Shown: positions 4,271 through 36,345 of the stretch, piece after piece
Numbering within the stretch: the stretch's first letter is position 1
Layout of the letters: each line of letters starts with the position of its first letter
IMG/VR virus record: IMGVR_UViG_3300021408_000001
Coordinates: 68,905 to 132,904 of that record
Length of the DNA stretch: 64,000 nt
Direction: 5' to 3' (one strand)
From: a virus
Taxonomy: Duplodnaviria; Caudoviricetes
The notes under the pieces: generated by a model
Databases searched by the model: none
What the model was told of the DNA's origin: nothing
The model's input: only the letters and a program-made list of their open reading frames with translations
Translations under genes and position numbers: made by a program

Positions 4271-4423
4271 ATGAATACACCAAACGAAAGCGCTTATGAC
4301 TTCTACTACGCACAAGCGATGATGGAAGGCGTGAATGCCAAAGAGGCAAGCGAGTACGCAATTCAGCGCGCCAGCAACCCAGGGCGTGACTTCTACAGCC
4401 ATATGTTGGCGCAGGCTCGTTAG
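4271..4423 (+). CDS. hypothetical protein (50 aa), first cassette gene
   Basis: AGGGGGAG RBS; TAG stop is the first base triplet of element 1. Confidence 0.65.
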   Translation: MNTPNESAYDFYYAQAMMEGVNAKEASEYAIQRASNPGRDFYSHMLAQAR

Positions 4424-4495
4424 TGATACTGAGACGTTAGGACTTAGGCCCTAACGTTGATTGTAATACTAACAATGGGAAAGGGAGCTAGTTAA

Positions 4496-4834
4496 ATGAA
4501 TAAGTTCGGAATCAAGGTCATCGTGGGTCTGTTCATCTTCGTGATCGGTTACGGTGCTAACGCACTGGATACCGCGAACGCGACGAACACCCCTGTGAGC
4601 AAGAGCGTCAACCTGGTGGCCAATACCGATAACCCTGACGTAGTGGTTACGTGGGGTACTGGTAACGAGGACGAGGATAATCTAGTGATTACGGTTGACG
4701 GCGCGGAAGTGCTTCGCACCCACGTTGACCAGCTCGCTAGTGGTAAGCGTCTGGTCGTGGTTGATGCCGATTGGTTCAACGGTTACGTGACCTGGTATGA
4801 CGCCAACGGTGCAGAGTTCACCAAGAGCCGATAG
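4496..4834 (+). CDS. secreted/membrane-anchored hypothetical protein
   Basis: Signal-peptide-like N-terminus; element plus GGGAAAGGGA RBS upstream. Confidence 0.75.
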   Translation: MNKFGIKVIVGLFIFVIGYGANALDTANATNTPVSKSVNLVANTDNPDVVVTWGTGNEDEDNLVITVDGAEVLRTHVDQLASGKRLVVVDADWFNGYVTWYDANGAEFTKSR

Positions 4835-4885
4835 CGGTTGCGGTTAGCCAACTACGGTTGGCTAACCAATTATCCTTATCGGATA

Positions 4886-4928
4886 TGGGATTCTAGAGAG
4901 TTACTTTCGTAACTCTCTGGGTTGACCA
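4886..4928 (+). repeat. second-type hairpin element (copy 1; copy 2 at 9792-9835)
   Basis: GGGA.TCTAG.GA(C)GTTAC-N4-GTAACTCTCT.GGTTGACC in both places, between a main element and the RBS. Confidence 0.75.
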
Positions 4929-4947
4929 ATGGGAAAGGGAAGAAACA

Positions 4948-5220
4948 ATGCGCAAGGGTGGGGATTCCCGCGGTTCGTCCGCTAGCCGCCGTGCTCGCAA
5001 AGTTTGGATGTTAAATCACTTTGGCAATGGGCTTAACGTCAATTGCGTTCATTGTGGTAAGGAACTTGATTACACCACAGTGGAGAGTGATCGAATCATT
5101 CCGGGTAACTTGGGTGGTTCTTATAGGCGAGACAATGTGCAACCCGCGTGCCGATGCTGCAACGCACGGCGCGCCGATGACATGAGCTGGACTTACACTC
5201 CAGTTATGGCAATGGCTTAG
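4948..5220 (+). CDS. small HNH endonuclease
   Basis: CxxC..ESDRIIPG..GGSYRRDNVQPACxxCN HNH/Zn-finger pattern. Confidence 0.8.
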   Translation: MRKGGDSRGSSASRRARKVWMLNHFGNGLNVNCVHCGKELDYTTVESDRIIPGNLGGSYRRDNVQPACRCCNARRADDMSWTYTPVMAMA

Positions 5221-5287
5221 CACTTACTGAGTCGGGGTAATGCAAATTACCCCGACAATTGTAAATACTAAGTTAGGGAGAGGGATT

Positions 5288-5488
5288 ATGGCTATCAAGC
5301 ATACGCAACGTGGCATGGGTGGTGGTAAGACTCATGGTGTTGTTAGTGAAGCGCACCAAGTGTTGCATCATCGCAAGCGTGAGACGACCGAGCGCATCAT
5401 TTGGGCTAAGCGCGTCCTTTACCGTCACAAGGTGATTGGTTGGGACGACTTGACCCCAATCGAGCAAATGGGACTGACCAAGCACTAG
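5288..5488 (+). CDS. hypothetical protein
   Basis: ATG after element plus RBS; TAG in next element. Confidence 0.75.
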   Translation: MAIKHTQRGMGGGKTHGVVSEAHQVLHHRKRETTERIIWAKRVLYRHKVIGWDDLTPIEQMGLTKH

Positions 5489-5553
5489 TGATACTGAGAG
5501 CTAACGACATCGTCGTTAGTTCAATTGCATTACTAGAGATAGGGGAAAGGGAT

Positions 5554-5862
5554 ATGAGTGAGTATCGCACAGACGGTGCGGGCGCGGAAGCGCTTGCATT
5601 GCAACTAGACGCGGACGAACGTTTGCAACCTGGTGATGCCGGTTACTGGCAGCATTGGGGAGCACGTACGTTTGACGTCAAGGCTGGTGACATCATCGCT
5701 ACTCTTGATAATGGCGTCATCGTTCTAGACGAAATCGCTAGTGCTCGTGACAACACTGTTCAAATGGTCTACACCACGGTTAGTGGTAAGACGTTCTCGC
5801 TTGGACATTTGTTCAAAGGATTTCAAGTGTTCCGTTCGGGAACGCATAACACGCTCGCCTAG
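5554..5862 (+). CDS. hypothetical protein
   Basis: ATG after element plus RBS; TAG in next element. Confidence 0.75.
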   Translation: MSEYRTDGAGAEALALQLDADERLQPGDAGYWQHWGARTFDVKAGDIIATLDNGVIVLDEIASARDNTVQMVYTTVSGKTFSLGHLFKGFQVFRSGTHNTLA

Positions 5863-5931
5863 TGGTACTGACCTAGTACTAGCAATAGTGCTAGGGATTG
5901 CATTACTAGACAATGGGAAAGGGAAGACAAC

Positions 5932-6078
5932 ATGCGCACCTACACCACTACCGATTCCAGTGGTAACAAGGTCCGAGTCATGGCCGATTCGCAGGCTGCC
6001 GCGGCCGGTTGGGCAGAAGTTGAGCGCAAGCTTGCCGCGATGCGTGCCATCGCCTACAACCTGCGCGTTTGGTTCTAG
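5932..6078 (+). CDS. hypothetical protein (48 aa)
   Basis: Fills exactly the space between RBS and next element. Confidence 0.7.
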   Translation: MRTYTTTDSSGNKVRVMADSQAAAAGWAEVERKLAAMRAIAYNLRVWF

Positions 6079-6144
6079 TCGTTACTGACCTGGCACTAGC
6101 AATAGTGCCAGGGATTGTAATTACTAGTAAATGGGAAAGGGATT

Positions 6145-6276
6145 ATGACTACTTTCAATTTCAACCATGTTCCGACCGGTCAGAGTGGCAAGGTCATGGC
6201 GCGTAACCACGTCGCCGCGGTCAAGATGGTCCGTGAGGCTTACGGACCTGGTGACGTTGAGATTCACGCGGTCTAG
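6145..6276 (+). CDS. hypothetical protein (43 aa)
   Basis: Fills exactly the space between RBS and next element. Confidence 0.7.
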   Translation: MTTFNFNHVPTGQSGKVMARNHVAAVKMVREAYGPGDVEIHAV

Positions 6277-6348
6277 TCGCTACTGAGAGGTTAGGACTTA
6301 GGTCCTAACCTCAATTGTAGTTACTGGTTAAGGGGAAAGGGATAGACA

Positions 6349-6738
6349 ATGCTGGACATTATGGGCAACGAATACGAGCAACTCCCGATGTTCATCAATC
6401 CCACTACCATCATCGATAAGACGATTGATGGTAGGTGGGATAGTATAGACCATGTCACAAGTGAAGATGCTTGGAATGGAAAGCTTCAGAATTCACTGCG
6501 TGGTGGACATACCGGCTCGGACTTCAATAATATCACTAAGTGGCAAGCGTTCGGACCAATCACGCTGACAGTTCATCACGACAACGTGATTATGGGTAAT
6601 GGTCATCACCGAGTCGCCATGAGCGCAAATCAGGGAATGCAATTGATTCCTTGCTTGTGGAGTCATACTTCCTTCGCGGAAGACGAGTACAAATCAAAGG
6701 AACGGGTACTAGGTTCCGAGGAAAGTGAGTATTACTAG
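6349..6738 (+). CDS. ParB/Srx-like domain protein
   Basis: GPI..IMGNGHHRVA motif; paralog of 17303..17653 (shared QLPMF). Confidence 0.6.
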   Translation: MLDIMGNEYEQLPMFINPTTIIDKTIDGRWDSIDHVTSEDAWNGKLQNSLRGGHTGSDFNNITKWQAFGPITLTVHHDNVIMGNGHHRVAMSANQGMQLIPCLWSHTSFAEDEYKSKERVLGSEESEYY

Positions 6739-6807
6739 CAACGGTTGACCACTGATTAGCAGTAGTCAGTGGGATTGCAGTTACTAGAACAGGGAAAGGG
6801 ATAGCCA

Positions 6808-7119
6808 ATGGCAAAGCTAACCGCTAATGGCAAGCACAAGGTTGCTAGCGTGAGCTATACGACCAAGCCGCGGACGGAAATGCCCAATGGTGGCAGTGAG
6901 GAGCACTACACAACGTTTGCGCTTAGGAGCGATGGTGCAGTGCTGGAAGCGCATACGAGCGTCTATCGTCATAAGAGCGATGGTGGCAAGTACCCGCATC
7001 GTATGGGTGGCAATTACACCATCGTTGGCACCTTGCGTACTGGCCTACCGATCACGGAAGAGACCTTGCGCAACTTGCGAGTAGTCAAGGCCTACTCAAA
7101 CAAGTACAACGAACGCTAG
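6808..7119 (+). CDS. hypothetical protein
   Basis: Element plus RBS; TAG in next element. Confidence 0.75.
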   Translation: MAKLTANGKHKVASVSYTTKPRTEMPNGGSEEHYTTFALRSDGAVLEAHTSVYRHKSDGGKYPHRMGGNYTIVGTLRTGLPITEETLRNLRVVKAYSNKYNER

Positions 7120-7469
7120 TAGTACTGAGAGAGCACAAGCTAGCTTGTGCTCTTGATTGCATTACTAGAACAGGGAAAGGGATAGCTAATGGGATGGTAT
7201 ACACTCATTAGGGTCGTTCAACGCACCGTTTGGAACTATGTTCTCTTCGATAGCGACAATCTCGTTGTCGCTAGTGCTTTGCGAGCGTCGTGGTTAGCAG
7301 TATGATCGCGCACAGTGTGTTTGAAATCATAGGCGGCGGCGTCTTGGGTGTTACAACCCTAGCGTTCTTTGTATGGGTCGCATGGTTTCTTTGGTTAGCT
7401 AGTTAACTCTGAGAGTGCACTAGGTTTCCCTAGTGTGCTCGATTGAGCTAATTAGAAGGGAAAGGGATT

Positions 7470-7667
7470 ATGGTAACACGTCGCAAGGATGGCACTGAGG
7501 TTAAGTCTGGTGACATCGTTGATGATTTCCGAGGCGCGCCCTGGGAATTCAAGCGTGCTGTTAGAGCACAAACTACCGCTAAGTCTGGCAAGGTGCTGGT
7601 TAGCGATGGGGCATGGGTGCAAGAGTTCTACGATTTAGTCTTTGACCTTACGGTCACGGATAGTTGA
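7470..7667 (+). CDS. hypothetical protein
   Basis: Element plus RBS upstream. Confidence 0.75.
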   Translation: MVTRRKDGTEVKSGDIVDDFRGAPWEFKRAVRAQTTAKSGKVLVSDGAWVQEFYDLVFDLTVTDS

Positions 7668-7736
7668 TTCTGAGAGTGCTTAGCGAAAGCTGAGTGCTCG
7701 ATTGAATTAACTGTTAAAGGGAAAGGGAAGGCGGCA

Positions 7737-8552
7737 ATGAGGAAGAAATTTGATTACAAATTTGAGTTTCGCCATTGTCCTCTTTGCCTTAGCGATGACA
7801 TAGAAGTTGTGTTTGGGCATGATTGCCCATATGACCCTAGTAAGCTTGATAACGGAGCTATGTTCCCTGGTGTCAATATTGATGCTAAGGAGCGTGGTAA
7901 CGGTAGTGGCAAGGGGTCGGGCGGTAATAGCCCACCTAAGGCATCTCCTAAGCAAATCGCATATGCGATAGCGCTAGGGCTACCAGAACACATTGCTAAC
8001 GCAATGACTGCCGCGAGTGCTAGGGATCATATTCCTAGGCTCTTGGAAGAGCGTAAGCGCAAGGGTGTTGATGCTCCTGTGAGTGGCGCTAGCCCTAAGC
8101 AGATTGACTTTATCACTAGTCTGCTTAGAGATAGGCCCGGGGCATGGGATGGTGACGTTAATACACTGTCTAGCAGTGATGCTAGTGCGCTTATCAAGCG
8201 CTTGCTCGCTACACCTAAGAGTCAAGCGCCTAAGGTGGCAACGGAAATCGTTACTGACGGTTTCTATGTGGATGACAGTGATGTCATTTACAAGGTGCAA
8301 CGCGCTGTGCATGGTAGCGGGAATCTTTATGCTAAGGTTCTCGATACCGACACTGGCGTGTTTGAATATGCACAAGGTGCTATTCGCACGCTTGGTACGA
8401 TGGTGTCTAAGGGTACTGCTCACAAGCTCACGCTTGAAAGAGCTAAGGCTCTTGGTCACCTTTACGGGCGTTGCATCATTTGCGGTAAGACGCTTACAGA
8501 CGAAACGTCAATCGCTAACGGCATTGGGCCGGTGTGTGCAAAGCGTTTCTAG
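7737..8552 (+). CDS. DUF6011-like Zn-finger protein with ASPKQI repeats
   Basis: C-terminal CIICGKTLTDETSIANGIGPVCA; two ASPKQI modules. Confidence 0.7.
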   Translation: MRKKFDYKFEFRHCPLCLSDDIEVVFGHDCPYDPSKLDNGAMFPGVNIDAKERGNGSGKGSGGNSPPKASPKQIAYAIALGLPEHIANAMTAASARDHIPRLLEERKRKGVDAPVSGASPKQIDFITSLLRDRPGAWDGDVNTLSSSDASALIKRLLATPKSQAPKVATEIVTDGFYVDDSDVIYKVQRAVHGSGNLYAKVLDTDTGVFEYAQGAIRTLGTMVSKGTAHKLTLERAKALGHLYGRCIICGKTLTDETSIANGIGPVCAKRF

Positions 8553-8621
8553 TTGATACTGCGGGGTAGCTAGTGATAGTTGCCCCAATTGAATTAACTA
8601 GTAAGGGAAAGGGAAGAGCAA

Positions 8622-8873
8622 ATGGCATTCAAGCGCCATATTTGGCCTATGCGTGCTAACGAAGTGCGTGAGGATGACTACCTAATCCTTTGGTTGGATT
8701 ACGCTTCAACGATGGTCATGCGTGTTGATGTTATCATTAGTCGTCGGCCGGGTGATTACAAGTTCAGTGGTGATATTCGTTGGAATTATCACGATGGTTC
8801 TAGTCGAGTGTTAAATGGTTGGTCGCCCTGGTATGAGCACACCCAGTGGATACAAGTTGCTCGTTATCAGTAG
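8622..8873 (+). CDS. hypothetical protein
   Basis: Element plus RBS; N-terminus resembles 14522 ORF. Confidence 0.75.
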   Translation: MAFKRHIWPMRANEVREDDYLILWLDYASTMVMRVDVIISRRPGDYKFSGDIRWNYHDGSSRVLNGWSPWYEHTQWIQVARYQ

Positions 8874-8940
8874 CTACTGAGGATAGACGATAAGTCGTCT
8901 ATCCAATTGTAGTTATTGGATTAGGGAAAGGGAAGAGCAA

Positions 8941-9183
8941 ATGGCTAAGGTCAATTCTAGGCTAAAGCCTAAGACTATCAAGGGTAGAGTGTTTACGTCA
9001 TTGGTGACGTTCTCTGATGACAACGAACACGTTGCACTTGAGGCTTACGACGATAACGGTCGTCGTCATTTCGTCAAGTTCACGCCAACTGAACTAGTCA
9101 AGCTACACGGTGTGCTAGAGACCGTTGCGCAACGCGGCTGGTTCAAGGAAATGTTGTCAAAGGAAACCAGCGATTCGGTTTAG
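8941..9183 (+). CDS. hypothetical protein
   Basis: Element plus RBS; TAG in next element. Confidence 0.75.
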   Translation: MAKVNSRLKPKTIKGRVFTSLVTFSDDNEHVALEAYDDNGRRHFVKFTPTELVKLHGVLETVAQRGWFKEMLSKETSDSV

Positions 9184-9249
9184 TGGTTCTGACCTAGCAC
9201 TATAGATAGTGCTAGGAATTGAATTACTAAATAGGGAAAGGGAAGAGCA

Positions 9250-9498
9250 ATGGGTTTCTTTGAGGGTAAGTTCAAGATCACGCATCATAAGCGTGATCGG
9301 GAAGTAAGCGTACGTATGGATTTGCGCACGCTGGAAGACCTTTATCACCAGCTCGTTCATGCTGAGATCAATTGGGAGCAGCAAGTACTCACCAATGGTG
9401 AGTACGTCAACGAATCCCGAGAGATTCTTGCTGAGGTTAAGAACTACCGCAAGGAGCTACGTGAGGCTTATGCCAAAGCTACTGGCCGCGAGGTTTAG
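9250..9498 (+). CDS. hypothetical protein
   Basis: Element plus RBS. Confidence 0.75.
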   Translation: MGFFEGKFKITHHKRDREVSVRMDLRTLEDLYHQLVHAEINWEQQVLTNGEYVNESREILAEVKNYRKELREAYAKATGREV

Positions 9499-9569
9499 TT
9501 AGCAACGGTTGACCTAGTGCTAGCGATAGCACTAGGGATTGTCGTTACTAATCAATGGGAAAGGGATTA

Positions 9570-9740
9570 ATGATGACTCAGTACCGTTGCCCGAATTGTG
9601 GGCACACTGAAAGTCAGTTCTTCGCCAACATCGAAGTTTGGCATGCATGCCCTAAGACAATGGGTCATGCTGCTGTGAGGCTTAAGGTCGTTAGCCCTGT
9701 CAAAGAGGCTAACCGAGTGCGTGACCTGTTGAAGTTGTAG
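9570..9740 (+). CDS. small Zn-ribbon-like protein
   Basis: CPNCGH..HACP; element plus RBS. Confidence 0.65.
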   Translation: MMTQYRCPNCGHTESQFFANIEVWHACPKTMGHAAVRLKVVSPVKEANRVRDLLKL

Positions 9741-9856
9741 TTGCTGAGAGCACAGGAGATCGCTCTCCTGTGCTCAATTGCAATATCAACATGGGAGTCT
9801 AGGGACGTTACGAAAGTAACTCTCTAGGTTGACCCTAAATGGGAAAGGGAATAACA

Positions 9857-9997
9857 ATGGATTGCTTCGATTATCCGCTTAGTGATGATGAAATCGACCG
9901 CGATGCATGGGATACCGACAACTACGATGGTGACGCTTTCTATGAGCGTCGTCCGTCCCAGCGTGGTAGTACTATCGACGCTGTTCTCGCTTCCTAG
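9857..9997 (+). CDS. small acidic protein (46 aa)
   Basis: RBS upstream; TAG in next element; Asp-rich. Confidence 0.65.
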   Translation: MDCFDYPLSDDEIDRDAWDTDNYDGDAFYERRPSQRGSTIDAVLAS

Positions 9998-10380
9998 TCG
10001 CTACTGAGGGCTAAGGACTACGGTCCTTAGTCCAATTGTAGTTACTAAGGTGAAGGGTAGAATGATGCTCACTAAGGAAAGCGGTTGCAAGCATTGTGGT
10101 AAGCAAATTGCCCGCAATGCTGATGGTGTATGGGTGACTATTATTATTCAAGACGCCGAGTGCGTATGGAATTTCGCGGATTTGGTACATGTGCCAGCCT
10201 ATGGCAATTGGAGCTAGCAACGATTGAGGGTAGCCAATAACTATATTGGCTACCCGATTGTCGTTACTAAATAGGGAAAGGGATTGCAATGGAAATCTTT
10301 AGTCTTGTGCTCGTTGAGGTTTCTCGTCCGCGTGGTGGTAGCAAGTGGGCGCGGTTCCTGCGCTCGTTGGTGCGCTAGTC

Positions 10381-10614
10381 ATGGATGATAACAAGCTTTG
10401 GGTTGACGCCTACCAGATTGCTTACATTGGTGGGAGCAATAAGCGAGCAATCGCTAATGCACTCATCAATTACACCAAGCAATTAGGTAGCAAGCATGTC
10501 GCGGTTCGTGCTATCGCTGGTCACCTACTGTACCTTTACGGGTACGATTTGGGTCCGGAGATCACGGACCTTAACAAGGTGCTTGCTAAGGCTGTTGAAC
10601 TTGGTATTGCCTAG
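10381..10614 (+). CDS. hypothetical protein
   Basis: ATG just after a short upstream ORF; TAG in next element. Confidence 0.65.
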   Translation: MDDNKLWVDAYQIAYIGGSNKRAIANALINYTKQLGSKHVAVRAIAGHLLYLYGYDLGPEITDLNKVLAKAVELGIA

Positions 10615-10686
10615 TGCAAGCTGAGAGCACAGGGGAGTGATCCCCTGTGCTCGATTGTTAGTACTAGACAGGGGAAGGGAAGAGCA

Positions 10687-11028: not shown

Positions 11029-11220
11029 ATGCGGTTTGAAGATCCTAGTTGGGCTGAAATACAGCGTGTCAGAGAGCGTGAGGCTGCTTATAGGGATAAG
11101 GCACTTCCTGTTGTAAGCAAGCTCGATACGACGCTTAGTAACTACCGCAAGGGTACGCTTACCTTTGGCGAGTTGCTCCTTAGCGTCAATAACTCTCTAC
11201 ACCAGCTAGATCAAATCTAG
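11029..11220 (+). CDS. hypothetical protein
   Basis: TAG in next element. Confidence 0.6.
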   Translation: MRFEDPSWAEIQRVREREAAYRDKALPVVSKLDTTLSNYRKGTLTFGELLLSVNNSLHQLDQI

Positions 11221-11289
11221 TCGTTACTGACCTAGCACTAGAGATAGTGCTAGGGACTGTAATTACTGGTAAGGGAAAGGGAGAAAGCA

Positions 11290-11544: not shown

Positions 11545-11780
11545 TGCCTACTGACGAATTTGGCGAGCCTCTGGAATGCCTTAACGGTCCGGAGGATTGC
11601 GTAGGCCCTGTGGACTATCGGCTAGCTCCTGGTGGTAAGGCGTGGCCACGTTGTGAGTACCACGCTAATAAGCGCTGGGACGACTACGACGATGAGAATA
11701 GCGTTGAGCGCTATGCGGATAGCGACGCTGTTCCCGAGTGGTTTGATCCGTCCTACGCTGGTGAAAGTTGGGATGATTAG
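11544..11780 (+). CDS. acidic Cys/His-containing hypothetical protein
   Basis: TAATG coupling; C..C..C..H; WFDPSYAGESWDD tail. Confidence 0.75.
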   Translation: MPTDEFGEPLECLNGPEDCVGPVDYRLAPGGKAWPRCEYHANKRWDDYDDENSVERYADSDAVPEWFDPSYAGESWDD

Positions 11781-11849
11781 TCGTTACTGAGAGCGTAGGG
11801 CTTAGGTCCTACGCTTGATTGTAGTTACTAAATGGGAAAGGGAAGAGCA

Positions 11850-12035
11850 ATGCTTGTGCCGGATGATAATATCATGGCTGACGATCACACATTCAGTACC
11901 GTTGCTATGTGGTATAACGAATCTGTTGATGTGTTGCAGCGAGTTGGTAATAGTTACCTTATTCGTAGGCCTTCTGGTATCACTATCACAGTGAGCCAGC
12001 GTGAACTTAGTGGTATTCGTCACACTTCACGTTAA
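11850..12035 (+). CDS. hypothetical protein
   Basis: Element plus RBS. Confidence 0.65.
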   Translation: MLVPDDNIMADDHTFSTVAMWYNESVDVLQRVGNSYLIRRPSGITITVSQRELSGIRHTSR

Positions 12036-12153
12036 CAAGTAGCTGAGAGCACAGGACGTTAGATTTACTAACCACTGAGATACTGTTTGGTGGTAGACAA
12101 TGTCCTGTGCTCAATTGCTAGTTGTTAGTGCAAATTGGGAAAGGGAGAAGCAA

Positions 12154-12600
12154 ATGAATGTGTTCAAGCTGATTAATGCAATCAACGATGTCGTTGCATT
12201 CAAGCCTGGGTACAAGCTGAGTGCCATTGATTGGAGTCGTCGTCACGCTGGGTCAATTCTTGTGCGAGTTACGTACAGGACCTTTGACTACAGCGCGGCA
12301 TACGCTCCCAACTACGGTAACTTTACCGAGTTGGAAATTTCGTGGTACTTCTGCATTGTTCCCGAGCACTACGACAACGAGCGTGGTTTCTGGCGAGGGT
12401 TCTTCGATAATCTCATGAGACTAGAGACTCATGAGAACCGTGAGGCTTTCCGTATCTTCAATCCTGATACGGATAAGTGGGAGGGGCCATTTAACCCCCA
12501 TGAGCCGAGTGGGCAGAAGAGCTTTGGCAGCATCGCTGAGGATATCCAGTTCGGCGATCTTGTCATCAACCCGGAAGACGTTGAGGTTCTGTTCGACTAG
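12154..12600 (+). CDS. hypothetical protein
   Basis: Element plus RBS; TAG in next element. Confidence 0.8.
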   Translation: MNVFKLINAINDVVAFKPGYKLSAIDWSRRHAGSILVRVTYRTFDYSAAYAPNYGNFTELEISWYFCIVPEHYDNERGFWRGFFDNLMRLETHENREAFRIFNPDTDKWEGPFNPHEPSGQKSFGSIAEDIQFGDLVINPEDVEVLFD

Positions 12601-12671
12601 TGCTAGCTGAGAGTAGCCAACAGTGTTGGCTACTCGATTGTTAGTATTGGTACGGGGAAAGGGAGAAAGCA

Positions 12672-13124
12672 ATGAGACAAGATTTCCAAGTGCTAGGTAA
12701 TTTGTATATCCCCAATGTCGATATCAGTCTTAGGTACCCCTTGTTTGAGGGGCCGCATTGGGGTCATCGTGTTCCTAGACAAGTGTTGAGTATCGCTAAT
12801 CGTGGTCCTAGCAGTGCTGCGAATCATTGGCATCACGATCAACCATTAGATATTGGTTTGATCCTGTGGTCAAACATGTTTCCAACAGAAATTAGGTTGT
12901 CGGATGGCAGAATTGTTACTGCTAAGCCATTTGATGTGGTGTTGCTGGACAATGCCAACGTTCACCATAGGACGCCAGAGTATGTCGTTAAGTTGGCGCA
13001 AAGAGGCGCTAGCATTAATCGTTATCTCATTCGTGGGATCTACGATGGCTATCCGTCCGATGATGTTATCAGTGAGTGGAAGAATCAACTAGCACGTAAG
13101 AAGACGCTTGTCAGTGCAAGCTGA
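12672..13124 (+). CDS. possible 2OG-Fe(II)/cupin-like oxygenase
   Basis: WHHD..VHHRTP..RYLIR spacing fits an HxD..H..R double-stranded beta-helix motif. Confidence 0.45.
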   Translation: MRQDFQVLGNLYIPNVDISLRYPLFEGPHWGHRVPRQVLSIANRGPSSAANHWHHDQPLDIGLILWSNMFPTEIRLSDGRIVTAKPFDVVLLDNANVHHRTPEYVVKLAQRGASINRYLIRGIYDGYPSDDVISEWKNQLARKKTLVSAS

Positions 13125-13186
13125 GGGTAAGCGGGCGGTTGCTCGCTTATCCAATTGTTAGTACTGAAAGGGAAAGGGAGAAAGCA

Positions 13187-13504
13187 ATGGGTGCACTACT
13201 ACTCATCGGCACAGTGGTCGTCATGACTGCAGTGCTACTAATCGTCGGCGCCGTATTGGCATCAATCGCAAGGGAAGACAATGGAAATCATCGCAGCAAT
13301 CGTCATCGTGGTGCTGATTCTGGCAGCAACACCCACAAGCAAGCCTCGCGAGAAGACGAATATCGTAGGGCAGGCAACGGGTCAAATGACGCCGGAGCAG
13401 CGCAGGTTGCGTTACGAGATATTGAGAGCATCATCAACGGCCGTCGCACATGGGTCAACACGTCGGACCAAGTGAGGGAAGTTCTTAGGTCGGTCGATTA
13501 CTAA
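13187..13504 (+). CDS. membrane-anchored hypothetical protein
   Basis: N-terminal TM segment; element plus RBS; could be two overlapping shorter ORFs. Confidence 0.55.
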   Translation: MGALLLIGTVVVMTAVLLIVGAVLASIAREDNGNHRSNRHRGADSGSNTHKQASREDEYRRAGNGSNDAGAAQVALRDIESIINGRRTWVNTSDQVREVLRSVDY

Positions 13505-14312
13505 TTGACTCTGAGGGTATAGGGCTTAGGTCCTATACCCAATTGAGCTAATTAGAAAGGGAAAGGGAGAAAGCAAATGAAAGTAACCACTACTACAGTG
13601 CGGTGGACGCTAGCACTGATCGTAGTGCTGGGATTCGCAGTCGCAGCACTAGTGCTTAATGACATCGCGGTACTCATCGGCGGTGCTATTGGCACTCTCG
13701 CTGTTACTGCGTTTCATGAGGTGCTGGACTACTTGGGGTATTAGTTAGTGTTGAGAGAACACAGGACTCCTGTGTTCTCAATTGCACTAATTGATTAAGG
13801 GAAAGGGAGAAAGTAATGATCTTTATTTACTTTGTGAAGAAGGTCATTGAGGCTGTCAAGGAGTATAAGAAGGCAAAGAGCAATGGTTGATTACGTCAAG
13901 CGGACCAACGGTGGCTATTACATCCTCTACCTGAATCAGAAGCTTGGGCACATTGTGCCTATTGGGGATGGCTATTGGGCTGCTGTTGATAACGCTGGGT
14001 TCCGGGTATGGAACCCTACGACTAGTGCTGAGACTGCCGCGCAACTTCTATTTGTGAGTCAGGCGGTTTAGGACCATGGCACTTCGATATGAAATCAAGG
14101 ACACGTATAACCCTACGTGGCGCGGCCAGCGTTTCAGTACTAAGGAACGAGGTAAGCGTGAGCTTGCTCATGCGTTTCCGCCGGGTAGGTGGGAGCTAAT
14201 TGACCGTGAGACCAAAGAGGTTATCGCAGTAAGCGAGTAGTGATTGCGGCAACACAGGGTCCTCCTGTGTTGCCAATTGTCATTACTGGTAAATGGGAAA
14301 GGGAGAAAGCAA

Positions 14313-17299: not shown

Positions 17300-17302
17300 T
17301 TA

Positions 17303-26147: not shown

Positions 26148-26358
26148 CCAAAGGGTGTAGCTACTGCGGGGATAGGGACTTAGGTCCCTATCCCCAATTG
26201 TAGTTAAAGCTAGGATGCTAAGAGACTCAAGCTTATTAGAAGTCTTTGAGAGCATTTCTTACAGTCTGGGTCCCTAATACGGATGTCAGGCCATCCTTGT
26301 AACTACATAATATAAGGGTATATTTATAGGTAGCTAGAGTGAGCAAGCCTATATAAAT

Positions 26359-26391
26359 TAGGAGGGGATTAGCTTAGCTAATCCCCTCCTA
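26359..26391. terminator. perfect 15-bp hairpin, possible terminator
   Basis: TAGGAGGGGATTAGC-TTA-GCTAATCCCCTCCTA; no clear U-tract. Confidence 0.45.
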
Positions 26392-26413
26392 TTCGCATAC
26401 AGAAAAGGGAAAG

Positions 26414-26788
26414 ATGGATACGATTACAGTGTATCGGGTACTCGAAGTCGCTAAAGAATTAGTGGCTGAGAATCCCGATGCTATTAATCCTCGTGTTGCT
26501 ATGGATATGGCTTGTGCTTATGTTCGTAGGGATGATATCGAAAACCCTGCTAACGCAGCGCCCAACTGTTTCGGTGGAGCTATTCTCCTCCGACTCGGCC
26601 TAGGTTTACCAAAAGAGGGACATTTAGTAGATAAGAGTCCCGATGTAGACAGGTTATCAGACAATGCTATGAAGCTGCTTATGTATATGCAGTGGCATGC
26701 TGATACTAGCTTAGTCTGGTCAGAAGCCTTGCCTAAGGCGGTTGCTGAGTATAACCGGAACCATGAGGATGAGAGAATCAGCCTTTGA
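26414..26788 (+). CDS. hypothetical protein, paralog A1
   Basis: A.EIV..NP...NP..C.Y..C.GG..L.RL.L..P.E shared with next two ORFs. Confidence 0.8.
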   Translation: MDTITVYRVLEVAKELVAENPDAINPRVAMDMACAYVRRDDIENPANAAPNCFGGAILLRLGLGLPKEGHLVDKSPDVDRLSDNAMKLLMYMQWHADTSLVWSEALPKAVAEYNRNHEDERISL

Positions 26789-27156
26789 CTGACACACTGA
26801 TCACCATGGAACGTGTCAGGGAAGTAGCACAAGAGATTGTTGCTGAAACCCCTGACGCGACCAATCCTCGTGAGCATGGGGTTACAGGTACGTGCCTTTA
26901 CACTAGGCTTGATGGTGTTAATAATCCACCTAATGCTGCACCTAGGTGTCTTGGTGGTGAGGTTCTAGTTCGTCTAGGACTTAGACTTCCAGAGGAGGAT
27001 CAGCTAGTCAGTACCTCTCTAGATAAAGATAAGTTAGATATGTTCGCTATGGACTATCTATGGAGTTTACAGAATATTGCTGACCAGTCCTTTGGGCCAT
27101 GGTCAGATGTACTGGAAGAACTAGAGACAAGAATTGCAAGGGAGTCTGATGGTTGA
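26785..27156 (+). CDS. hypothetical protein, paralog A2
   Basis: Same motifs; overlapping start/stop. Confidence 0.8.
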   Translation: MTDTLITMERVREVAQEIVAETPDATNPREHGVTGTCLYTRLDGVNNPPNAAPRCLGGEVLVRLGLRLPEEDQLVSTSLDKDKLDMFAMDYLWSLQNIADQSFGPWSDVLEELETRIARESDG

Positions 27157-27541
27157 CAAGATCAAGTACAACCAGGTGTTAGGGTTAGCGCAAGAGATTG
27201 TTAATGCTAATCCTAACATGGTCAATCCACAGGGCCTTAATGGTGAGTGCGTTTATAGCAAGCTTCCTGGGTTCGATGACACCATCAATGTCGCTAATCG
27301 ATGCATCGGTGGTGAAATCCTGTCTCGTCTAGATCTCAGTATTCCACATGAGGGAACTACAGTTTATGAATCCCCAGATAGGTATAAACTAACCACTAGA
27401 GCAATGCAATTTCTAGCTGAACTACAGAGAATGGCGGACTATAGAGATCCGTCAACTCGTACGCCCCGACCTTGGGGTAAGGCGTTAGAGATAGCAATCT
27501 CTGCCTTCGCCGAATATGATGCACATCTAGAGGACGAGTAG
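27149..27541 (+). CDS. hypothetical protein, paralog A3
   Basis: Same motifs; TAG in next element. Confidence 0.8.
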   Translation: MVDKIKYNQVLGLAQEIVNANPNMVNPQGLNGECVYSKLPGFDDTINVANRCIGGEILSRLDLSIPHEGTTVYESPDRYKLTTRAMQFLAELQRMADYRDPSTRTPRPWGKALEIAISAFAEYDAHLEDE

Positions 27542-30257: not shown

Positions 30258-30267
30258 AGAGGGATAA

Positions 30268-30522
30268 GTGGCTGCTGCATCACTAAAGAATATTGAAGGA
30301 TGGTACCAGAGTGGTATTGTCCGAGGTGCTACCCATATGTTGGTAGTTACTGATACTTGGACAATGGTAGACACTCCGATATTTGTTCTTCGATGGGATG
30401 ATGTCAACGAAGTCATTGCTAAGTATCTCAAGATGGAACATACCAAGATCCAAGAGGTTTATAATCTAAGCATGTTGTGGGCAGAGCAGAATACACCGCG
30501 TGAGAAGGTGTGGAATATTTAG
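30268..30522 (+). CDS. hypothetical protein
   Basis: GATHMLVVTD..EVYNL; TAG in next element. Confidence 0.7.
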   Translation: MAAASLKNIEGWYQSGIVRGATHMLVVTDTWTMVDTPIFVLRWDDVNEVIAKYLKMEHTKIQEVYNLSMLWAEQNTPREKVWNI

Positions 30523-30548
30523 TACTAGCTGAGGGTAGTGGGTAGCTC

Positions 30549-30677
30549 AGTCCTCTAGGACGTAAGGGCCTAGACGATGTGAGCATTGATAGTGGAGCTG
30601 CGTAGGACGGGAAACCTTGACGCAGAGTAAGACGGACGGCCTATAATGGAGCGAGTCTTACGGTCTATCGATGTTCG
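30549..30677 (+). ncRNA. candidate structured small RNA nested in the loop of a repeat element
   Basis: 129 nt enclosed by GGGTAGTGGGTAGCTC/GGGCTACCCACTGCTC; four internal helices. Confidence 0.55.
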
Positions 30678-30727
30678 GGGCTACCCACTGCTCAATTGTT
30701 AGTATTAACCAAGGGAAAGGGAAGTAA

Positions 30728-30949
30728 ATGGCAAGACTAGTCATCATGATTGATGTTAAGGGCATTGACCCTACGATCATGGATCCACAGGTGCTAGCGG
30801 AAGATATCGTTATGGATGGTCCAGAGTATTCTGACGGTGTTAGATTCACCATTGCTGATAATGCTGAATGGATCGCAGAAAACGATGATCCTCTAGCGTG
30901 GCGTAGATCAATGCGGAAGCTGAGTGATAAACTGTTTCCGGACGACTAG
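30728..30949 (+). CDS. hypothetical protein
   Basis: Element plus RBS; TAG in next element. Confidence 0.75.
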   Translation: MARLVIMIDVKGIDPTIMDPQVLAEDIVMDGPEYSDGVRFTIADNAEWIAENDDPLAWRRSMRKLSDKLFPDD

Positions 30950-31017
30950 TAATTGAGAGTGCACAGGAGGCCTGTGCATTCGATTGTTATTAGTACACAA
31001 GGGAAAGGGAAGCAACA

Positions 31018-32424: not shown

Positions 32425-33483
32425 AGTGTGGTTACTAGCTATATTAATTGGCGGTGTAGCAATGGCCGTAATGGTTTTTATGGTGGTACACTCCATTGTA
32501 AAAAGGTAATGATTGAGGGTGCACAGGGGAACTTGTGCATCCAATTGTCATTATCAATAGGGAAAGGGAAAGTATGGAGGAATTTAAGATAGGGGACATC
32601 GTTGAGGTAGATGGTGAAACTGTCTATCATATGCACGAAGATACACTCCGAGGAACTATCGAAAAGATTTCCCCGGGGCTATTTGATATTCCTCTTTACC
32701 TAGTTCAATTTAGGGATTTCACTTTTTGGCTCTATGCTCATCATTTGACTGAGGTTAATTAGCATGAGTGATCTTGACGTACAAGTTGAGGGTCTAGCTA
32801 GACTCAATTCTAATTGGGATAGTCATGGTGGCACACCACCTACCCATGAAGCTATTAAAACTCTATGTAATATAGTCTTTGTGCCACTGCCCAATGGTGG
32901 TATTCAGGTTGAGATAGATGATGGTGATGTCTACGTGGAGACTGAGATTGCCCCGGATGGGAATATAGTCTACACCATGAAGTTTAGCAAACACAAAGGA
33001 AAGTGAGGTGATAACAAAATGAAGTTAAAGAAAGGTGATCGTGTCGAGCTTCTAGACAAGTTCAGGAACGCCCCATTCCAGGGACATACTGGAACCGTGC
33101 TAAGGCGCGGCAAAATTGGTCGAATGTGGCATGTCAAGTTAGATATGCCTGGCTTAATGGGGCAGACAATGGCTAGGGTTCCAACTAGTGGCCTACAGAA
33201 GATCCAGCAGGCCTAGCGAATTCAGGTGCCCCGGAGCGACGCATGGCACCCCCTACGTTGCCTCCTAAGGCTCTCCCAGAGGTCGGAAGGTCCGAGAGTG
33301 CCGGGAACCCTGATTCGGCCGCATTGGCCCCTAGAATGCCCCAGAATCGATTTGGTGGACGGAGCGTGAGATCGAACTACGGAACGTGTGATTCTAGTGC
33401 TAGCTAAGAGCTAACAAGTTCAAAACAAAAGGACAACCTTGTTGGCTCGATTGTTACTACTAGATATAAGGAAAGGGGTAGCG

Positions 33484-34032: not shown

Positions 34033-34087
34033 TTAGCCGTACAAAAGCACCCTGTGAAATATTCACAGGGTGCTTTTGTACGGCTAA
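34033..34087. terminator. bidirectional terminator-like perfect inverted repeat (26-bp arms)
   Basis: TTAGCCGTACAAAAGCACCCTGTGAA-ATA-TTCACAGGGTGCTTTTGTACGGCTAA between convergent ORFs. Confidence 0.75.
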
Positions 34088-34099
34088 AACTAAAAAAGC

Positions 34100-34255
34100 C
34101 TACTCGTTCTCATTTGAGGGAGTAGGCTCGTGTCCAGGGTTAGGCTGTGTGTTAGGATTGGGATTTGGCTCCGGAGTAGGGTTATCCGGGAAATCTGGAT
34201 CGGTAGTTTCCTTAACAGGAGGGCCGTCCGGAACTGGTGTATCGCGTACAGACAT
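34100..34255 (-). CDS. Pro/Asn-rich small protein (51 aa)
   Basis: AAAGGAATGAGG RBS on - strand; MSVRDTPVPDGPP..PEPNPNPN; ends at the terminator. Confidence 0.55.
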   Translation of the reverse strand: MSVRDTPVPDGPPVKETTDPDFPDNPTPEPNPNPNTQPNPGHEPTPSNENE

Positions 34256-34349
34256 CAGAACCTCATTCCTTTAATAAAGGTTAGTTCCACCCGCTCTGTA
34301 CTATGTACCCAGGAACTAGCTCATATATACCCGGTCCTTAACGGCTGCG

Positions 34350-34376
34350 CCGACTCGGCTCGCAGTCAGGTATAAT
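34350..34376 (+). promoter_or_regulatory. sigma70/SigA-like -10 (GGTATAAT) upstream of the DUF3987-like gene
   Basis: Consensus TATAAT in intergenic DNA; similar sites near 52768, 56600, 61468. Confidence 0.45.
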
Positions 34377-34462
34377 GAGGGCCTAGAACGTCAAAGCCCC
34401 CCGTCCTGTGCAACCAGGTCCGGGGGGCGTGCCGAGCACCACAGGGAAAGGGTTAATCCGCA

Positions 34463-35836
34463 ATGCTCGACAAGGAAGATGATACCGGGAATGGGGGCAC
34501 GTCCACCATTCCTGGGAGTTTCCTCGTAAACTCGTTTCCTCGTAGCACACCGACGCTCGCCGAGGAGGCCTTCCATGGCCTGGCGGGCGACATTGTGCGT
34601 ACTATCGAGCCTCACTCGGAAGCCGATCCCGCTGCACTACTACTTCACTTTTTGGTATTTTACGGTAATGCGGTAGGTAACGGCCCTTATATCGAGCTAG
34701 GCTCTGATAATCAACCGTCACGTTTGTTCGCAGTGGTCGTTGGTGATGCTGCATTGGGGCGTAAGGGTACGGCTGGCTCAGAAATTGAGCGTCTTATGAG
34801 GGATGCTGATCGTAAGTGGTACAATCGTGCCCTTACTAGTGGTCTTCAATCCTCCGAGGCTATCGTAACTGCCGTTGATGATGAGATGGGGCAAAGCAAG
34901 GACTTGCTAATTTATTACTCTGAGTTCGGTGGACTTTTGTCTGCTATGAATCGGCGTGATAACATCTCTGATACCCTTAAGCTTGCCTATGATGGTAAGA
35001 CGCTTAAGATTCGTACTAAGCATCATAATGGTTGGCGTACTGCGTCGCATGCTCACATTTCGGTGATGGGTCATGTGACTCCTAGTATTCTGGCTGATCG
35101 ACTGTCTAGTGCAGAAATTGCTAGTGGTTTCGCTAATCGTTTCATTTACTTCGCAGTGGAAAGGTCAAAGCTGCTTTCTCGGCCGAGGCCTATCCCGGAG
35201 GAGACTCGCGAATCGATGGCTGATAGGGTAGATGAATCTCTGTACTGGGTTAACGACTTCGTATTTGCAGGTGTTGATCCTATTAGTGCTGATCTTTATA
35301 GGCATTTCGGAAGAAAGCCTAAGCGAGAGATGCATCTTAGCGATGCTGCCTGGGACTATTGGGACGAGCTTTATCTTGTGCTAAGTGAGAAGCGCCCCGG
35401 TGTTGTGGGTGAACTAATGGGTCGTGCCCCGGCTAATGTTATCCGCCTTGCATTGATCTATGCTCTACTAGACAAATCCATTGTAATTGACGTGCCTCAC
35501 TTGAAGGCCGCAAAAGCTGTTATGGACTATTCTGAGGAATCTATTGCTCAAGTCTTCGCAGGCATCACTGGCGACCACCAGGTAGACAGAGTACTATACG
35601 AGCTTTCTACGGCTGTAAACCAGACTCTAAGTCGTAATAACATTCTTAATATCTTCAATAGAAATCTTTCTGTTGCTCAAGTTACTAAGGTTATCGAACG
35701 ACTTATGGAAACTGGCCTAGTGACTCATACAAGAGGCACCACTGGGCCACGTGGAGGGCGTCCTCCGGATCTCTACACCCTTACGAGGGAACGAGGGAAC
35801 GAGGAAACTACCCTTGAAATCCCAGAGCCAAAGTAG
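34463..35836 (+). CDS. DUF3987/YfjI-like P-loop protein (primase-helicase associated)
   Basis: HSEADP..LFAVVVGD..GRKGT (Walker A-like), SEFG, SGFANRF, C-terminal winged-helix-like GGRP. Confidence 0.75.
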   Translation: MLDKEDDTGNGGTSTIPGSFLVNSFPRSTPTLAEEAFHGLAGDIVRTIEPHSEADPAALLLHFLVFYGNAVGNGPYIELGSDNQPSRLFAVVVGDAALGRKGTAGSEIERLMRDADRKWYNRALTSGLQSSEAIVTAVDDEMGQSKDLLIYYSEFGGLLSAMNRRDNISDTLKLAYDGKTLKIRTKHHNGWRTASHAHISVMGHVTPSILADRLSSAEIASGFANRFIYFAVERSKLLSRPRPIPEETRESMADRVDESLYWVNDFVFAGVDPISADLYRHFGRKPKREMHLSDAAWDYWDELYLVLSEKRPGVVGELMGRAPANVIRLALIYALLDKSIVIDVPHLKAAKAVMDYSEESIAQVFAGITGDHQVDRVLYELSTAVNQTLSRNNILNIFNRNLSVAQVTKVIERLMETGLVTHTRGTTGPRGGRPPDLYTLTRERGNEETTLEIPEPK

Positions 35837-36110
35837 GCATACTCTCTACAGATTGTTTGGGGGGACTGGTGAACTGTTATATATTGGAAGAACGATTAGT
35901 CCACGTCTTAGGCTCAAGCAACATGAAGCCACCAAAGATTGGTGGGACGAGGTTGCATTCATAACGTTAAAGAAATTCGGTACACTAGAAGAACTAAGTG
36001 ATGCCGAGTTTACTGCTATAAATACAGAGAATCCGAAATTCAATGCGGCCAAAGAACTTTTTGGGGAATTTGCCAATCTTAATTTTCCAGAGAAGGAGAA
36101 TGACAAGTGA
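35814..36110 (+). CDS. GIY-YIG nuclease family protein
   Basis: LYRLF..LLYIGRT..RLKQH..E..AI..ENPKFN; start could be further upstream (35751). Confidence 0.8.
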   Translation: MKSQSQSRHTLYRLFGGTGELLYIGRTISPRLRLKQHEATKDWWDEVAFITLKKFGTLEELSDAEFTAINTENPKFNAAKELFGEFANLNFPEKENDK

Positions 36111-36271
36111 ACATCGGTGAAGAACAAAACCCTATCGAAGTGCCTGAGCCGCTGAGTCCAGAGCGAGAGCCGATTAAGGAACCTTCTCCTCCGGTTAAGG
36201 AGCCAGTTCCGGCTAAGACGGTTTATGCCAACGAGGTACCCTTTGTGCGTCCAACGGTAACTATTAGTTAG
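36107..36271 (+). CDS. Pro/Glu-rich small protein (54 aa)
   Basis: GTGA overlap, AAGGAG RBS; MNIGEEQNPIEVPEP; TAG abuts the last element. Confidence 0.6.
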   Translation: MNIGEEQNPIEVPEPLSPEREPIKEPSPPVKEPVPAKTVYANEVPFVRPTVTIS

Positions 36272-36345
36272 TAGTACTACCTAAGAACTAGCAAGCTAGG
36301 CTTGCTAGTTCGACTGGTAATATTACAGAAAGGGAAAGGGATGAA

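Follow-up and report, generated by a model that had tools for sequence, protein, structure and literature searches.

What does one and the same stem-loop do between dozens of small phage genes? The question is raised by the right-hand 64 kb of the 132,904-bp virus record IMGVR_UViG_3300021408_000001 (hereafter the window, 64,000 nucleotides long, to whose numbering all coordinates refer unless stated otherwise). Here, an element of about 55 nt recurs 55 times between positions 4419 and 36327, always in the same orientation. Each copy consists of an outer stem of 10 bp, the internal loop (C)UGA / RAUU and an inner hairpin of 10–12 bp, and the extended Shine-Dalgarno (SD) motif GGGAAAGGGA lies downstream. 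A first-pass annotation had described such a recurrent, co-oriented stem-loop between small genes, and it is present as described. The element represents a real, previously unnamed structured-RNA family with overwhelming statistical support, which stands out by how densely its copies are packed, by the covarying two tiers of its design and by its tie to gene turnover.

Copies and conserved motifs

A strict pattern scan of the whole 132.9-kb genome yielded 47 clean copies, all on the plus strand of the window between 4.4 and 32.6 kb, and eight reverse-strand matches, all of them poor. Searching the same genome with a covariance model built from 45 copies (R1) gave 53 plus-strand matches (32–70 bits, E ≤ 2e-5), all at 4419–36327. 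It detected no copy in the 69 kb outside the window and, on the minus strand, nothing beyond weak palindromic echoes. Two extra copies, at 12032–12126 and 30518–30710, have normal flanks but large apical inserts and were picked up by the pattern scan. In total, 48 of the 55 copies lie at or before 26.2 kb and the model has no match past 36327, which bears out the earlier description of about 48 copies at 4.4–26.2 kb, thinning out to 36.3 kb, with none beyond. The copy it had quoted, at 6274–6326, also reads as written (TAGTCGCTAC-TGA-...-AATT-GTAGTTACTG).

In the internal loop, TGA is conserved in 48 of 55 copies and preceded by C in 43, while RATT is conserved in 50 and followed by G in 54. 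A 22-base composite pattern matched 12 times in the window, compared to no match in 100 shuffles. The SD motif GGGAAAGGGA occurs 41 times on the plus strand of the genome and once on the minus strand; bar one at 61.5 kb, all plus-strand occurrences fall within the window at 4.4–37.3 kb.

Conservation of the fold

Counting outward from the internal loop, which needs no alignment, we found standard base pairs in 548 of 550 cells of the inner stem and in 498 of 550 cells of the outer stem, with three to six pair types at each stem position (five at outer position 9). In this count, the self-pairing of arms scored 9.96, against 5.85 with the arms of other copies, and arms paired across copies reached just 5.9 and 6.5 of 10. 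In an alignment of 66 sequences, which includes the copies from related phages described below, 94.0% of 1357 cells pair, compared to 64.8% after shuffling and 26–47% with the partners slid, and double changes, affecting both sides, are found at all 21 pairs. This alignment was fitted to the model, but the alignment-free count agrees with it. The results show that the two-tier hairpin is maintained by compensatory change, in line with the earlier claim of a conserved structure with variable inner sequence.

The sense strand has 124 G-U (G-T) pairs against 20 A-C oppositions, and the mismatches would thus fall on the bottom strand. Selection on the fold hence acts on the sense strand, and the structure is most simply read as mRNA. 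Predicted folds have energies of −28 to −31 kcal/mol (z about −4), and the GGGAAAGGGA stretch is unpaired in every one of them. Across all 55 copies, the pairwise identities of the outer stems and of the inner hairpins are uncorrelated (r = 0.07), identical inner hairpins occurring in unrelated outer stems and conversely. Adjacent copies are slightly more alike than random pairs (0.53 vs. 0.47).

Two further interpretations of the motif were rejected. CUGA has the letters of a box D, yet the tandem G-A pairs of a kink-turn (box C-D) motif are unavailable: opposite CUGA stands G followed by U, C or A, not GA, and in 30 of the 55 copies the R is an A (judged by eye, without a 3D test). Reading TGTTAGTAT in the 3′ arm as an extended −10 promoter suits just some of the copies, and the arms in question covary with the 5′ arm.

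Placement between genes

In most copies, the upstream gene's stop codon is inside the 5′ arm. The stop within the element is TAG in 43 of 55 copies; of these TAGs, 27 are located at position −10 and another 13 at −7 or −9. On the downstream side, GGGAAAGGGA begins 3–7 nt past the 3′ arm, and the start codon, mostly ATG, follows mostly 3–12 nt later. Gene junctions are bimodal, measuring 62–77 nt where they contain an element and being overlaps of 1, 4, 8 or 11 nt where they do not. From these overlaps it follows that neighbouring genes without an intervening element are translationally coupled, as the annotation had stated for most of them, and the junctions show that the element replaces translational coupling wherever it is present. 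The 54 intervals between elements hold one gene in 29 cases, two in 10, three in 10 and four to six in 5.

TAG terminates 51 of 98 array genes, compared to 13 of 74 genes downstream, and 20 of the 43 element-borne TAGs are followed by a second in-frame stop within 0–1 codons. The genome has 15 tRNAs in the window and six elsewhere, one of which, at genome position 1201–1275, carries a CUA (amber-reading) anticodon. The element may double as a back-up stop.

Occurrence in related phages

Rfam searches at the gathering threshold matched only tRNAs, and even at E ≤ 0.1 there was no match on the elements of the 4.3–37-kb region or of two related contigs (L082 and L083, see below), so the motif belongs to no named family, as the annotation had supposed. 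Pattern scans of IMG/VR gave 3 and 60 single matches, all attributable to chance and none upheld by the covariance model, and a scan of 185,579 prokaryotic species genomes in GTDB gave five single matches, which is the chance level. IMG/VR contigs with a 45–49% identical portal protein contain no element, a metagenome scan with an alignment of the DUF6011 protein reached only distant phages without elements, and a search with the ORFan at 12672–13121 returned only the query itself. A literature search turned up no paper describing the element.

Thirteen further copies were found on three contigs from other samples. L022 (969 bp) encodes a 50% identical orthologue of the DUF6011 protein (7737–8552), preceded by a 56-bit copy of the element, GGGAAAGGGA and ATG. 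L082 (11 kb) encodes a SprT-like protein 59% identical to that at 24681–25106 and has nine model matches, in addition to a degenerate copy near 6700 and a copy bearing an apical insert (‘cargo’) at about 2683–2870. The SprT-like protein of L083 (1.5 kb) is 68% identical, and this contig has three model matches. For a 19.4-kb contig with a 57% identical protein (JGI 3300056388), the gene table alone shows gaps of about 75 nt between small genes. These comparisons show that the element is conserved in kind, and often in position, among related phages, and the family seems to be restricted to a single small lineage of phages from soil.

The window between 24.4 and 33.9 kb and L082 have 12 genes in common, interleaved with unrelated genes. 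Eleven of these are colinear. The twelfth, at 33484, is only a weak match and is inverted with respect to the adjacent gene. Relative to the shared genes, an element occupies the same position at at least five places (window/L082: 24426/1620, 25578/3427, 26153/4370, 27534/5775, 28887/~6700), and 30518/8106 is likely a further such pair. In the syntenic pair 24426/1620, the inner stems differ by changes from A-U to G-C and from C-G to U-G.

Two segments have been replaced wholesale (two genes vs. four in the first, four vs. three in the second) and are flanked by elements on both sides in both phages. Among 28 window junctions compared to L082, nine have an element and eight of these are synteny breakpoints (seven when one weak match is discounted), whereas only 7 of the 19 element-free junctions are; 7 of the 15 breakpoints thus have no element. 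The enrichment of breakpoints at elements has a Fisher p of 0.016, or of 0.10 under the conservative count. On L022, the gene upstream of the DUF6011 orthologue differs, and the element resembles the window copies at 10213 and 22416, not the syntenic one. These comparisons partly show that elements are preferred, but not exclusive, points of gene exchange. Of the predicted gene insertions and deletions bounded by elements, we can thus uphold that replacement favours element junctions, but not that it is confined to them. Short homology in the stretch of loop, arm, SD and leader (e.g. GGGAAAGGGAGAAAGCAA), or a lack of coding constraint, would suffice for exchange, and there is no sign of a dedicated recombinase; the repeated modules are the main non-coding DNA of the array.

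The phage is present in two DNA runs, both from one soil metagenome sample, and no RNA run is listed for it. The contigs of the two DNA runs over 4.4–24.4 kb contain no indels, true joints, or deletion or circle junctions. One apparent joint and three loose ends turned out to be other element copies of the same genome, aligned at 80% likeness, and the remaining two loose ends are foreign sequence.

The cargo-bearing copy at 30518–30710 is 83% identical in DNA to L082:2680–2895, whereas the neighbouring proteins are only 33–59% identical. The copy in L082 is non-syntenic and follows the SprT cassette. The insert of about 130 nt has no Rfam match and no open reading frame, and probably represents a conserved non-coding RNA for which the element serves as scaffold.

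A processing site for host RNase III?

We propose that the element works within the sense transcript as a structured intercistronic module and is cut by host RNase III, insulating each unit. We give this full statement an even chance of being right, and are fairly confident of the weaker claim that the element is an intercistronic RNA element acting after transcription. The interrupted helix of about 20–22 bp would form the substrate of the double-strand-specific host RNase III, which would cut within or next to the conserved internal loop, (C)UGA / RAUU, in the manner of the R sites of phage T7. The inner hairpin would stay on the upstream message as a 3′ protective cap, and the downstream message would begin some 15–25 nt ahead of GGGAAAGGGA. 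Over about 8 nt (GGAAAGGG against UCUUUCCU), this motif can base-pair with 16S 3′ ends of the CCUCCUUUCU type, a type common among Gram-positive and actinobacterial ribosomes. The motif could act both in driving initiation and in shielding the 5′ end so formed. Such shielding would mirror the STAB-SD idea, in which a bound 30S subunit protects the 5′ end. As a net result, each unit of one to six genes would become its own insulated message, with its own stability and translation, and the modules would, as a side effect, double as preferred cassette boundaries. Sigma-70-type promoter-like sites in the array (28, compared to 25.8 and 31.3 in shuffles; none tied to elements) are at the level of shuffled sequence, which is consistent with long transcripts. 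To call such a transcript early, as the annotation did, is an assumption.

Cleavage of the T7 sites by RNase III is proven. For comparison, the T7 intergenic regions with R0.3, R0.5, R1, R1.1 and R1.3 were folded from the sequence of the T7 record, at what we take to be the positions given by Dunn and Studier (1983). R0.3, R0.5, R1.1 and R1.3 fold into a lower stem, an asymmetric internal loop, an upper stem of about 10 bp and a loop of 3–5 nt, whereas only the upper stem is clear in R1. The sites have ACUC on the 5′ side of the internal loop and UAUGAUU(G) on its 3′ side (R1.1 reads UAUGAUUG). Our elements match them in plan and dimensions and, like them, are located between the cistrons of a long co-directional transcript and have loop sequences that are conserved among copies, with RAUUG where T7 has UAUGAUU(G). 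Each of the 55 copies lies on the strand of the genes, between a stop codon and the SD that follows, and spans about two helical turns (10 bp + 3×4-nt loop + 10–12 bp). However, T7 has 10 sites in 40 kb and this phage 55 in 32 kb, so that nearly every gene has its own; the upper stem is conserved in sequence in T7, whereas both stems of the element vary and covary; and the helix of the element starts at the stop codon and is joined to a fixed SD. We regard the likeness to T7 sites as one of resemblance, not of membership.

Several points weigh against the proposed role. The phage is known from soil metagenome DNA alone. RNase III of E. coli needs no conserved loop sequence, and the near-invariance of CUGA / RAUUG could therefore point to a sequence-specific factor. 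Since the stop codon lies in the stem, terminating ribosomes must melt the lower helix, which may limit the cleavage of translated messages. The likeness to T7 is architectural only: beyond the short GAUUG, there is no sequence homology to T7/T3 sites, and no Rfam family covers the element. Finally, the breakpoint statistic comes from few junctions and from one 11-kb relative with small, fast-evolving proteins, and some of the ‘absent’ genes may be diverged orthologues. As to the effector, no Ribonuclease_3, Ribonucleas_3_3, dsrm or Csy4 domain was detected in the 94%-complete genome, in searches that did detect their positive controls; it would thus be host-encoded or of an unknown kind.

Alternative explanations

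The element could also be a passive stabiliser or insulator that is never cleaved, blocking 3′-to-5′ exonucleases, uncoupling cistrons and keeping the strong SD clear of the upstream coding sequence, much like the repetitive extragenic palindrome (REP) hairpins of operons. The stable helices, the SD left unpaired in all folds at a fixed 3–7 nt from the helix base, and the substitution of elements for translational coupling would all be expected of such an insulator. A plain barrier, however, needs no conserved loop, no fixed two tiers (10 + 10–12 bp) and no invariant closing pairs, and we consider this explanation doubtful. Like REP/BIME sequences, which are associated with RAYT proteins, the elements are short intergenic imperfect palindromes that follow stops in operons, where REPs can stabilise the upstream mRNA. 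Unlike the elements, REPs form inverted pairs spread by a Y1 transposase and have no attached SD, whereas the elements have a single orientation and the genome encodes no Y1 transposase (PF01797; control positive).

More broadly, the module might be the unit of a phage cassette system, in which an unidentified factor would read CUGA / RAUUG, the two tiers would be exchanged as units, as the uncorrelated identities of outer and inner parts suggest, and the apical loop would serve as a landing pad for the non-coding RNA of about 130 nt. We think this unlikely; if true, one structure would organise transcript processing, translation and gene-cassette turnover.

Alternatively, the CUGA / RAUUG loop, with or without GGGAAAGGGA, would be bound or cut by an RNA-binding protein or nuclease that the phage itself encodes and that belongs to an unknown family, and this factor would switch the whole array on or off as one; T4 RegA and RegB, which act on early ribosome-binding sites, may serve as a model. 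Loop and SD are conserved far beyond the needs of pairing, the same motifs are retained in relatives whose proteins are only 33–68% identical, and the array proteins, about 90% of which have no assigned family, could include such a factor. Yet no candidate was found, the sole nucleases seen being HNH and GIY-YIG homing-type enzymes besides the absence of dsrm, RNase III and Csy4 domains, and this alternative is distinctly unlikely in our judgement.

The same possibility was raised by the authors who described the start-associated sequences (SAS) and extended SAS (ESAS) of cluster K mycobacteriophages (Pope et al. 2011, PMC3203893), a G-rich motif of unknown function that begins with GGGA and lies over the ribosome-binding site. 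SAS (GGGATAGGAGCCC) has 11–19 copies per genome, about half of them with an inverted repeat (PMC3203893). The likeness to our elements extends to the asymmetric, GGGA-initial motif itself (SAS lies 3–7 nt before mostly ATG starts), the single orientation, the restriction to the non-structural arm, the unusually long gaps (>50 bp), the inverted repeat with variable spacer just upstream and the upstream stop that sometimes falls within the motif; GGGAAAGGGA is correspondingly restricted to the array, in one orientation and mostly 3–12 nt before the start. However, ESAS arms follow a 17-bp consensus, whereas the arms of the elements covary without one. The 13-bp consensus GGGATAGGAGCCC differs from GGGAAAGGGA, ESAS have neither a two-tier helix nor a conserved internal loop, and the elements are three to five times more numerous.

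A primary role at the DNA level, with the elements as cassette-mobilising recombination sites that act as attC-like folded single strands or by homologous exchange as in the PeSL modules of T4-type phages, appears very unlikely to us. It would account for the enrichment of breakpoints at elements and the two segments bounded by them on both sides, for the element of L022, with its different upstream gene and its similarity to non-syntenic copies, for the free recombination of outer and inner tiers, and for the different places of the homologous cargo-bearing copy in the window and L082. Against it stand the 7 of 15 breakpoints without an element, the lack of deletion or circle junctions in the two DNA runs and the good pairing of the sense strand. 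The 94%-complete genome also has no tyrosine recombinase (PF00589; control positive in 14 of 14 genomes), nor a Y1 transposase, and the elements have no attC R″/R′ core sites.

Like integron attC sites, the elements are imperfect palindromes at or near the stop of small promoterless genes, in a co-oriented array of variable gene content. They differ from attC sites in the absence of IntI or any other tyrosine recombinase from the phage and of RYYYAAC / GTTRRRY cores, their arms (TAGTNNNNNC ... GNNNNNACTA) varying freely, in being better paired on the sense rather than the bottom strand, and in the many units that hold several coupled genes. The annotation had likened the array to T7 processing sites and to integrons; the architecture of the folded T7 sites and the sense-strand excess of G-U pairs speak for the first analogy, whereas the integron mechanism, with neither recombinase nor attC cores, finds no support. 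PeSL, which combine a sigma-70 promoter with a working terminator and for which mini-circles were reported (Arbiol et al. 2010, PMC2839356; Comeau et al. 2014, PMC4122927), are the nearest case for the cassette aspect, as short repeated stem-loop regulatory modules that flank small ORFan genes in hyperplastic regions and mark points of insertion, deletion and replacement between close relatives. Unlike PeSL, the elements have no adjoining promoter or U-tract, and no circle or deletion junction was seen.

That the elements are transcription terminators or attenuators, with or without promoters, as in PeSL cassettes, is hardly credible: a loose scan picks 29 inner hairpins and the 3′ side (RATTGTTA...) is moderately T-rich, but the tail after the inner stem, which starts with a purine and A (RAUUG), is itself base-paired with the 5′ arm, and what comes after the complete helix is rich in purines instead of being a U-tract, so that the elements are not read as terminators; moreover, there is no room and no conserved −35/−10 between hairpin and SD, promoter-like sites are at shuffle level, and a series of fifty-five terminators would leave the array silent.

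If the elements are cleaved by RNase III, as we propose, this phage would show the punctuation of an operon gene by gene in its most extreme natural form, with 55 sites and 54 units, and hairpin plus SD would make a compact natural insulator of interest for synthetic operons in Gram-positive or actinobacterial hosts. For the mycobacteriophage SAS/ESAS repeats, which have the same layout and have lacked an explanation since 2011, the elements also provide a lead on the mechanism. Should the link between junctions and replacement hold with more relatives, it would illustrate how the turnover of phage accessory genes can be shaped by a post-transcriptional signal as well. An Rfam-type family can be seeded with the covariance model and the alignment of 66 sequences.

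The phage and its array

The virus record is linear, without a terminal repeat within it, and the genome is about 94% complete by the CheckV estimate. A protein collection places the proteins of the phage on a 155,744-bp contig, longer than the 132,904-bp record, which may therefore lack about 23 kb, possibly a terminal repeat. The genome encodes a family A DNA polymerase fused to a uracil-DNA glycosylase (UDG) domain, a RepB-primase/DUF3987 protein, a Mu-type portal and a terminase. The nearest portals of cultured phages, from Arthrobacter and Corynebacterium phages, are only about 30% identical, the closest, in Arthrobacter phages, reaching 32%. Array proteins with DUF6011 and DUF3987 match phages of Streptomyces, Thermobifida, Gordonia and Tsukamurella, and these matches to phages of actinobacteria make an actinobacterial host likely. 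An affiliation with Streptomyces cluster BE phages was dropped, as 8 kb of phage DNA had no megablast match among 50,697 phage records and in view of the low portal identity. Pfam recognises only nine families among the 105 array proteins (HNH, HNH_5, GIY-YIG, SprT-like, PNKP phosphatase, M78 peptidase, DUF3987, DUF6011, DUF7417), HNH and HNH_5 both being on the single HNH-endonuclease gene at 4948–5220. The positions of all elements are given in Table 1.

Table 1. Element copies and associated features in the window (R1, covariance model)
Feature	Position	Strand	Evidence
Whole array, 55 elements, 54 units of 1–6 small genes	4419–36327	+	scans
Extended SD motif GGGAAAGGGA, dispersed	4477–37300	+	40 exact copies
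Element	4419–4474	+	R1 42.9 bits
Element, loop TGC, then second hairpin	4827–4883	+	R1 32.8 bits
Element	5216–5272	+	R1 51.3 bits
Element	5484–5538	+	R1 52.8 bits
Element	5858–5911	+	R1 39.8 bits
Element	6074–6128	+	R1 58.1 bits
Element (example of the first-pass annotation)	6272–6328	+	R1 62.7 bits; fold −30.9 kcal/mol, z −4.1
Element	6734–6788	+	R1 45.7 bits
Element	7115–7170	+	R1 51.4 bits
Element	7398–7456	+	R1 51.2 bits
Element, upstream of DUF6011 gene	7659–7715	+	R1 49.5 bits
Element, loop TGC	8548–8602	+	R1 33.4 bits
Element	8866–8920	+	R1 64.5 bits
Element	9179–9232	+	R1 44.5 bits
Element	9498–9552	+	R1 47.4 bits
Element, then second hairpin	9733–9791	+	R1 50.4 bits
Element	9993–10049	+	R1 62.1 bits
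Element	10213–10271	+	R1 58.9 bits
Element	10610–10668	+	R1 62.4 bits
Element	11216–11270	+	R1 53.9 bits
Element	11776–11832	+	R1 60.5 bits
Element, 66-nt inner part, nested apical hairpin	12032–12126	+	pattern scan; fold −45.8 kcal/mol, z −5.5
Element	12596–12651	+	R1 65.4 bits
Element	13110–13168	+	R1 52.6 bits
Element	13500–13556	+	R1 58.2 bits
Element	13740–13795	+	R1 64.1 bits
Element, loop TGC	14233–14290	+	R1 51.9 bits
Element	14919–14974	+	R1 62.4 bits
Element	15340–15396	+	R1 68.3 bits
Element	16051–16106	+	R1 68.9 bits
Element	16309–16365	+	R1 69.5 bits; fold z −4.4
Element	17026–17082	+	R1 62.6 bits
Element	17646–17701	+	R1 59.6 bits
Element	18190–18244	+	R1 54.3 bits
Element	18582–18636	+	R1 59.8 bits
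Element, 3′ loop AAAT	19221–19276	+	R1 42.7 bits
Element	19839–19894	+	R1 63.4 bits
Element	20292–20348	+	R1 63.1 bits; fold z −3.9
Element	20851–20906	+	R1 61.6 bits
Element	21176–21231	+	R1 54.1 bits
Element	21603–21661	+	R1 55.2 bits
Element	22416–22471	+	R1 60.4 bits
Element	22688–22743	+	R1 60.0 bits
Element	23738–23793	+	R1 61.6 bits
Element, upstream of SprT cassette; counterparts L082 1620–1675, L083 479–534	24426–24481	+	R1 61.9 bits
Element	25272–25327	+	R1 59.9 bits
Element, loop TAA / GACT, left border of replaced segment	25578–25636	+	R1 32.1 bits
Element, loop TGC, right border of replaced segment, then 200-nt non-coding stretch	26153–26211	+	R1 33.3 bits
Element, left border of replaced segment	27534–27589	+	R1 57.0 bits
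Element, right border of replaced segment	28887–28944	+	R1 50.3 bits
Element, ~130-nt structured insert (‘cargo’) in apical loop	30518–30710	+	pattern scan
Element	30942–30997	+	R1 61.5 bits
Element	32502–32558	+	R1 54.6 bits
Element, 41-nt inner part, loop TAA	33393–33464	+	R1 41.9 bits
Last element, loop TAA / GACT	36270–36327	+	R1 39.0 bits

Further features

The copy at 12032–12126 has a long inner stem of 14 bp, extended by a second, nested hairpin. A different second hairpin of 12–13 bp stands between a normal element and its SD at 4886–4925 and 9799–9838, with a core of GAGAGTTAC...GTAACTCTC followed by GGTTGACC; these two gaps measure 113–116 nt, and one of them precedes the gene for the HNH endonuclease.

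Within the array, a long non-coding gap occurs just once, at 26212–26413, and it has an equally long counterpart at the same place in the related phage (L082:4436–4631). It contains a strong 15-bp hairpin read on the minus strand (26359–26391) and promoter-like hexamers, and is probably a transcription-unit boundary, which would explain the thinning of the elements past 26.2 kb. It is followed, at 26414–27541 (L082:4632–5779), by three tandem paralogous genes of 123–130 aa, 35–52% identical to each other's counterparts. The triplet is kept in both phages and closed by an element.

An AT-rich non-coding region at 650–900 and 1280–1700, where the genes switch from the minus to the plus strand, carries a motif of about 35 nt twice (catagtaacttat...tgaatatactaaac) and may hold early promoters or an origin. 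Ahead of the DUF3987 primase-like gene (34463–35836), the stretch 34340–34462 contains a GGTATAAT box at 34370 and a G+C-rich hairpin. A similar box, TGGTATAAT, is found at 61469, and these two boxes are the best candidates for host-type promoters that we have seen.

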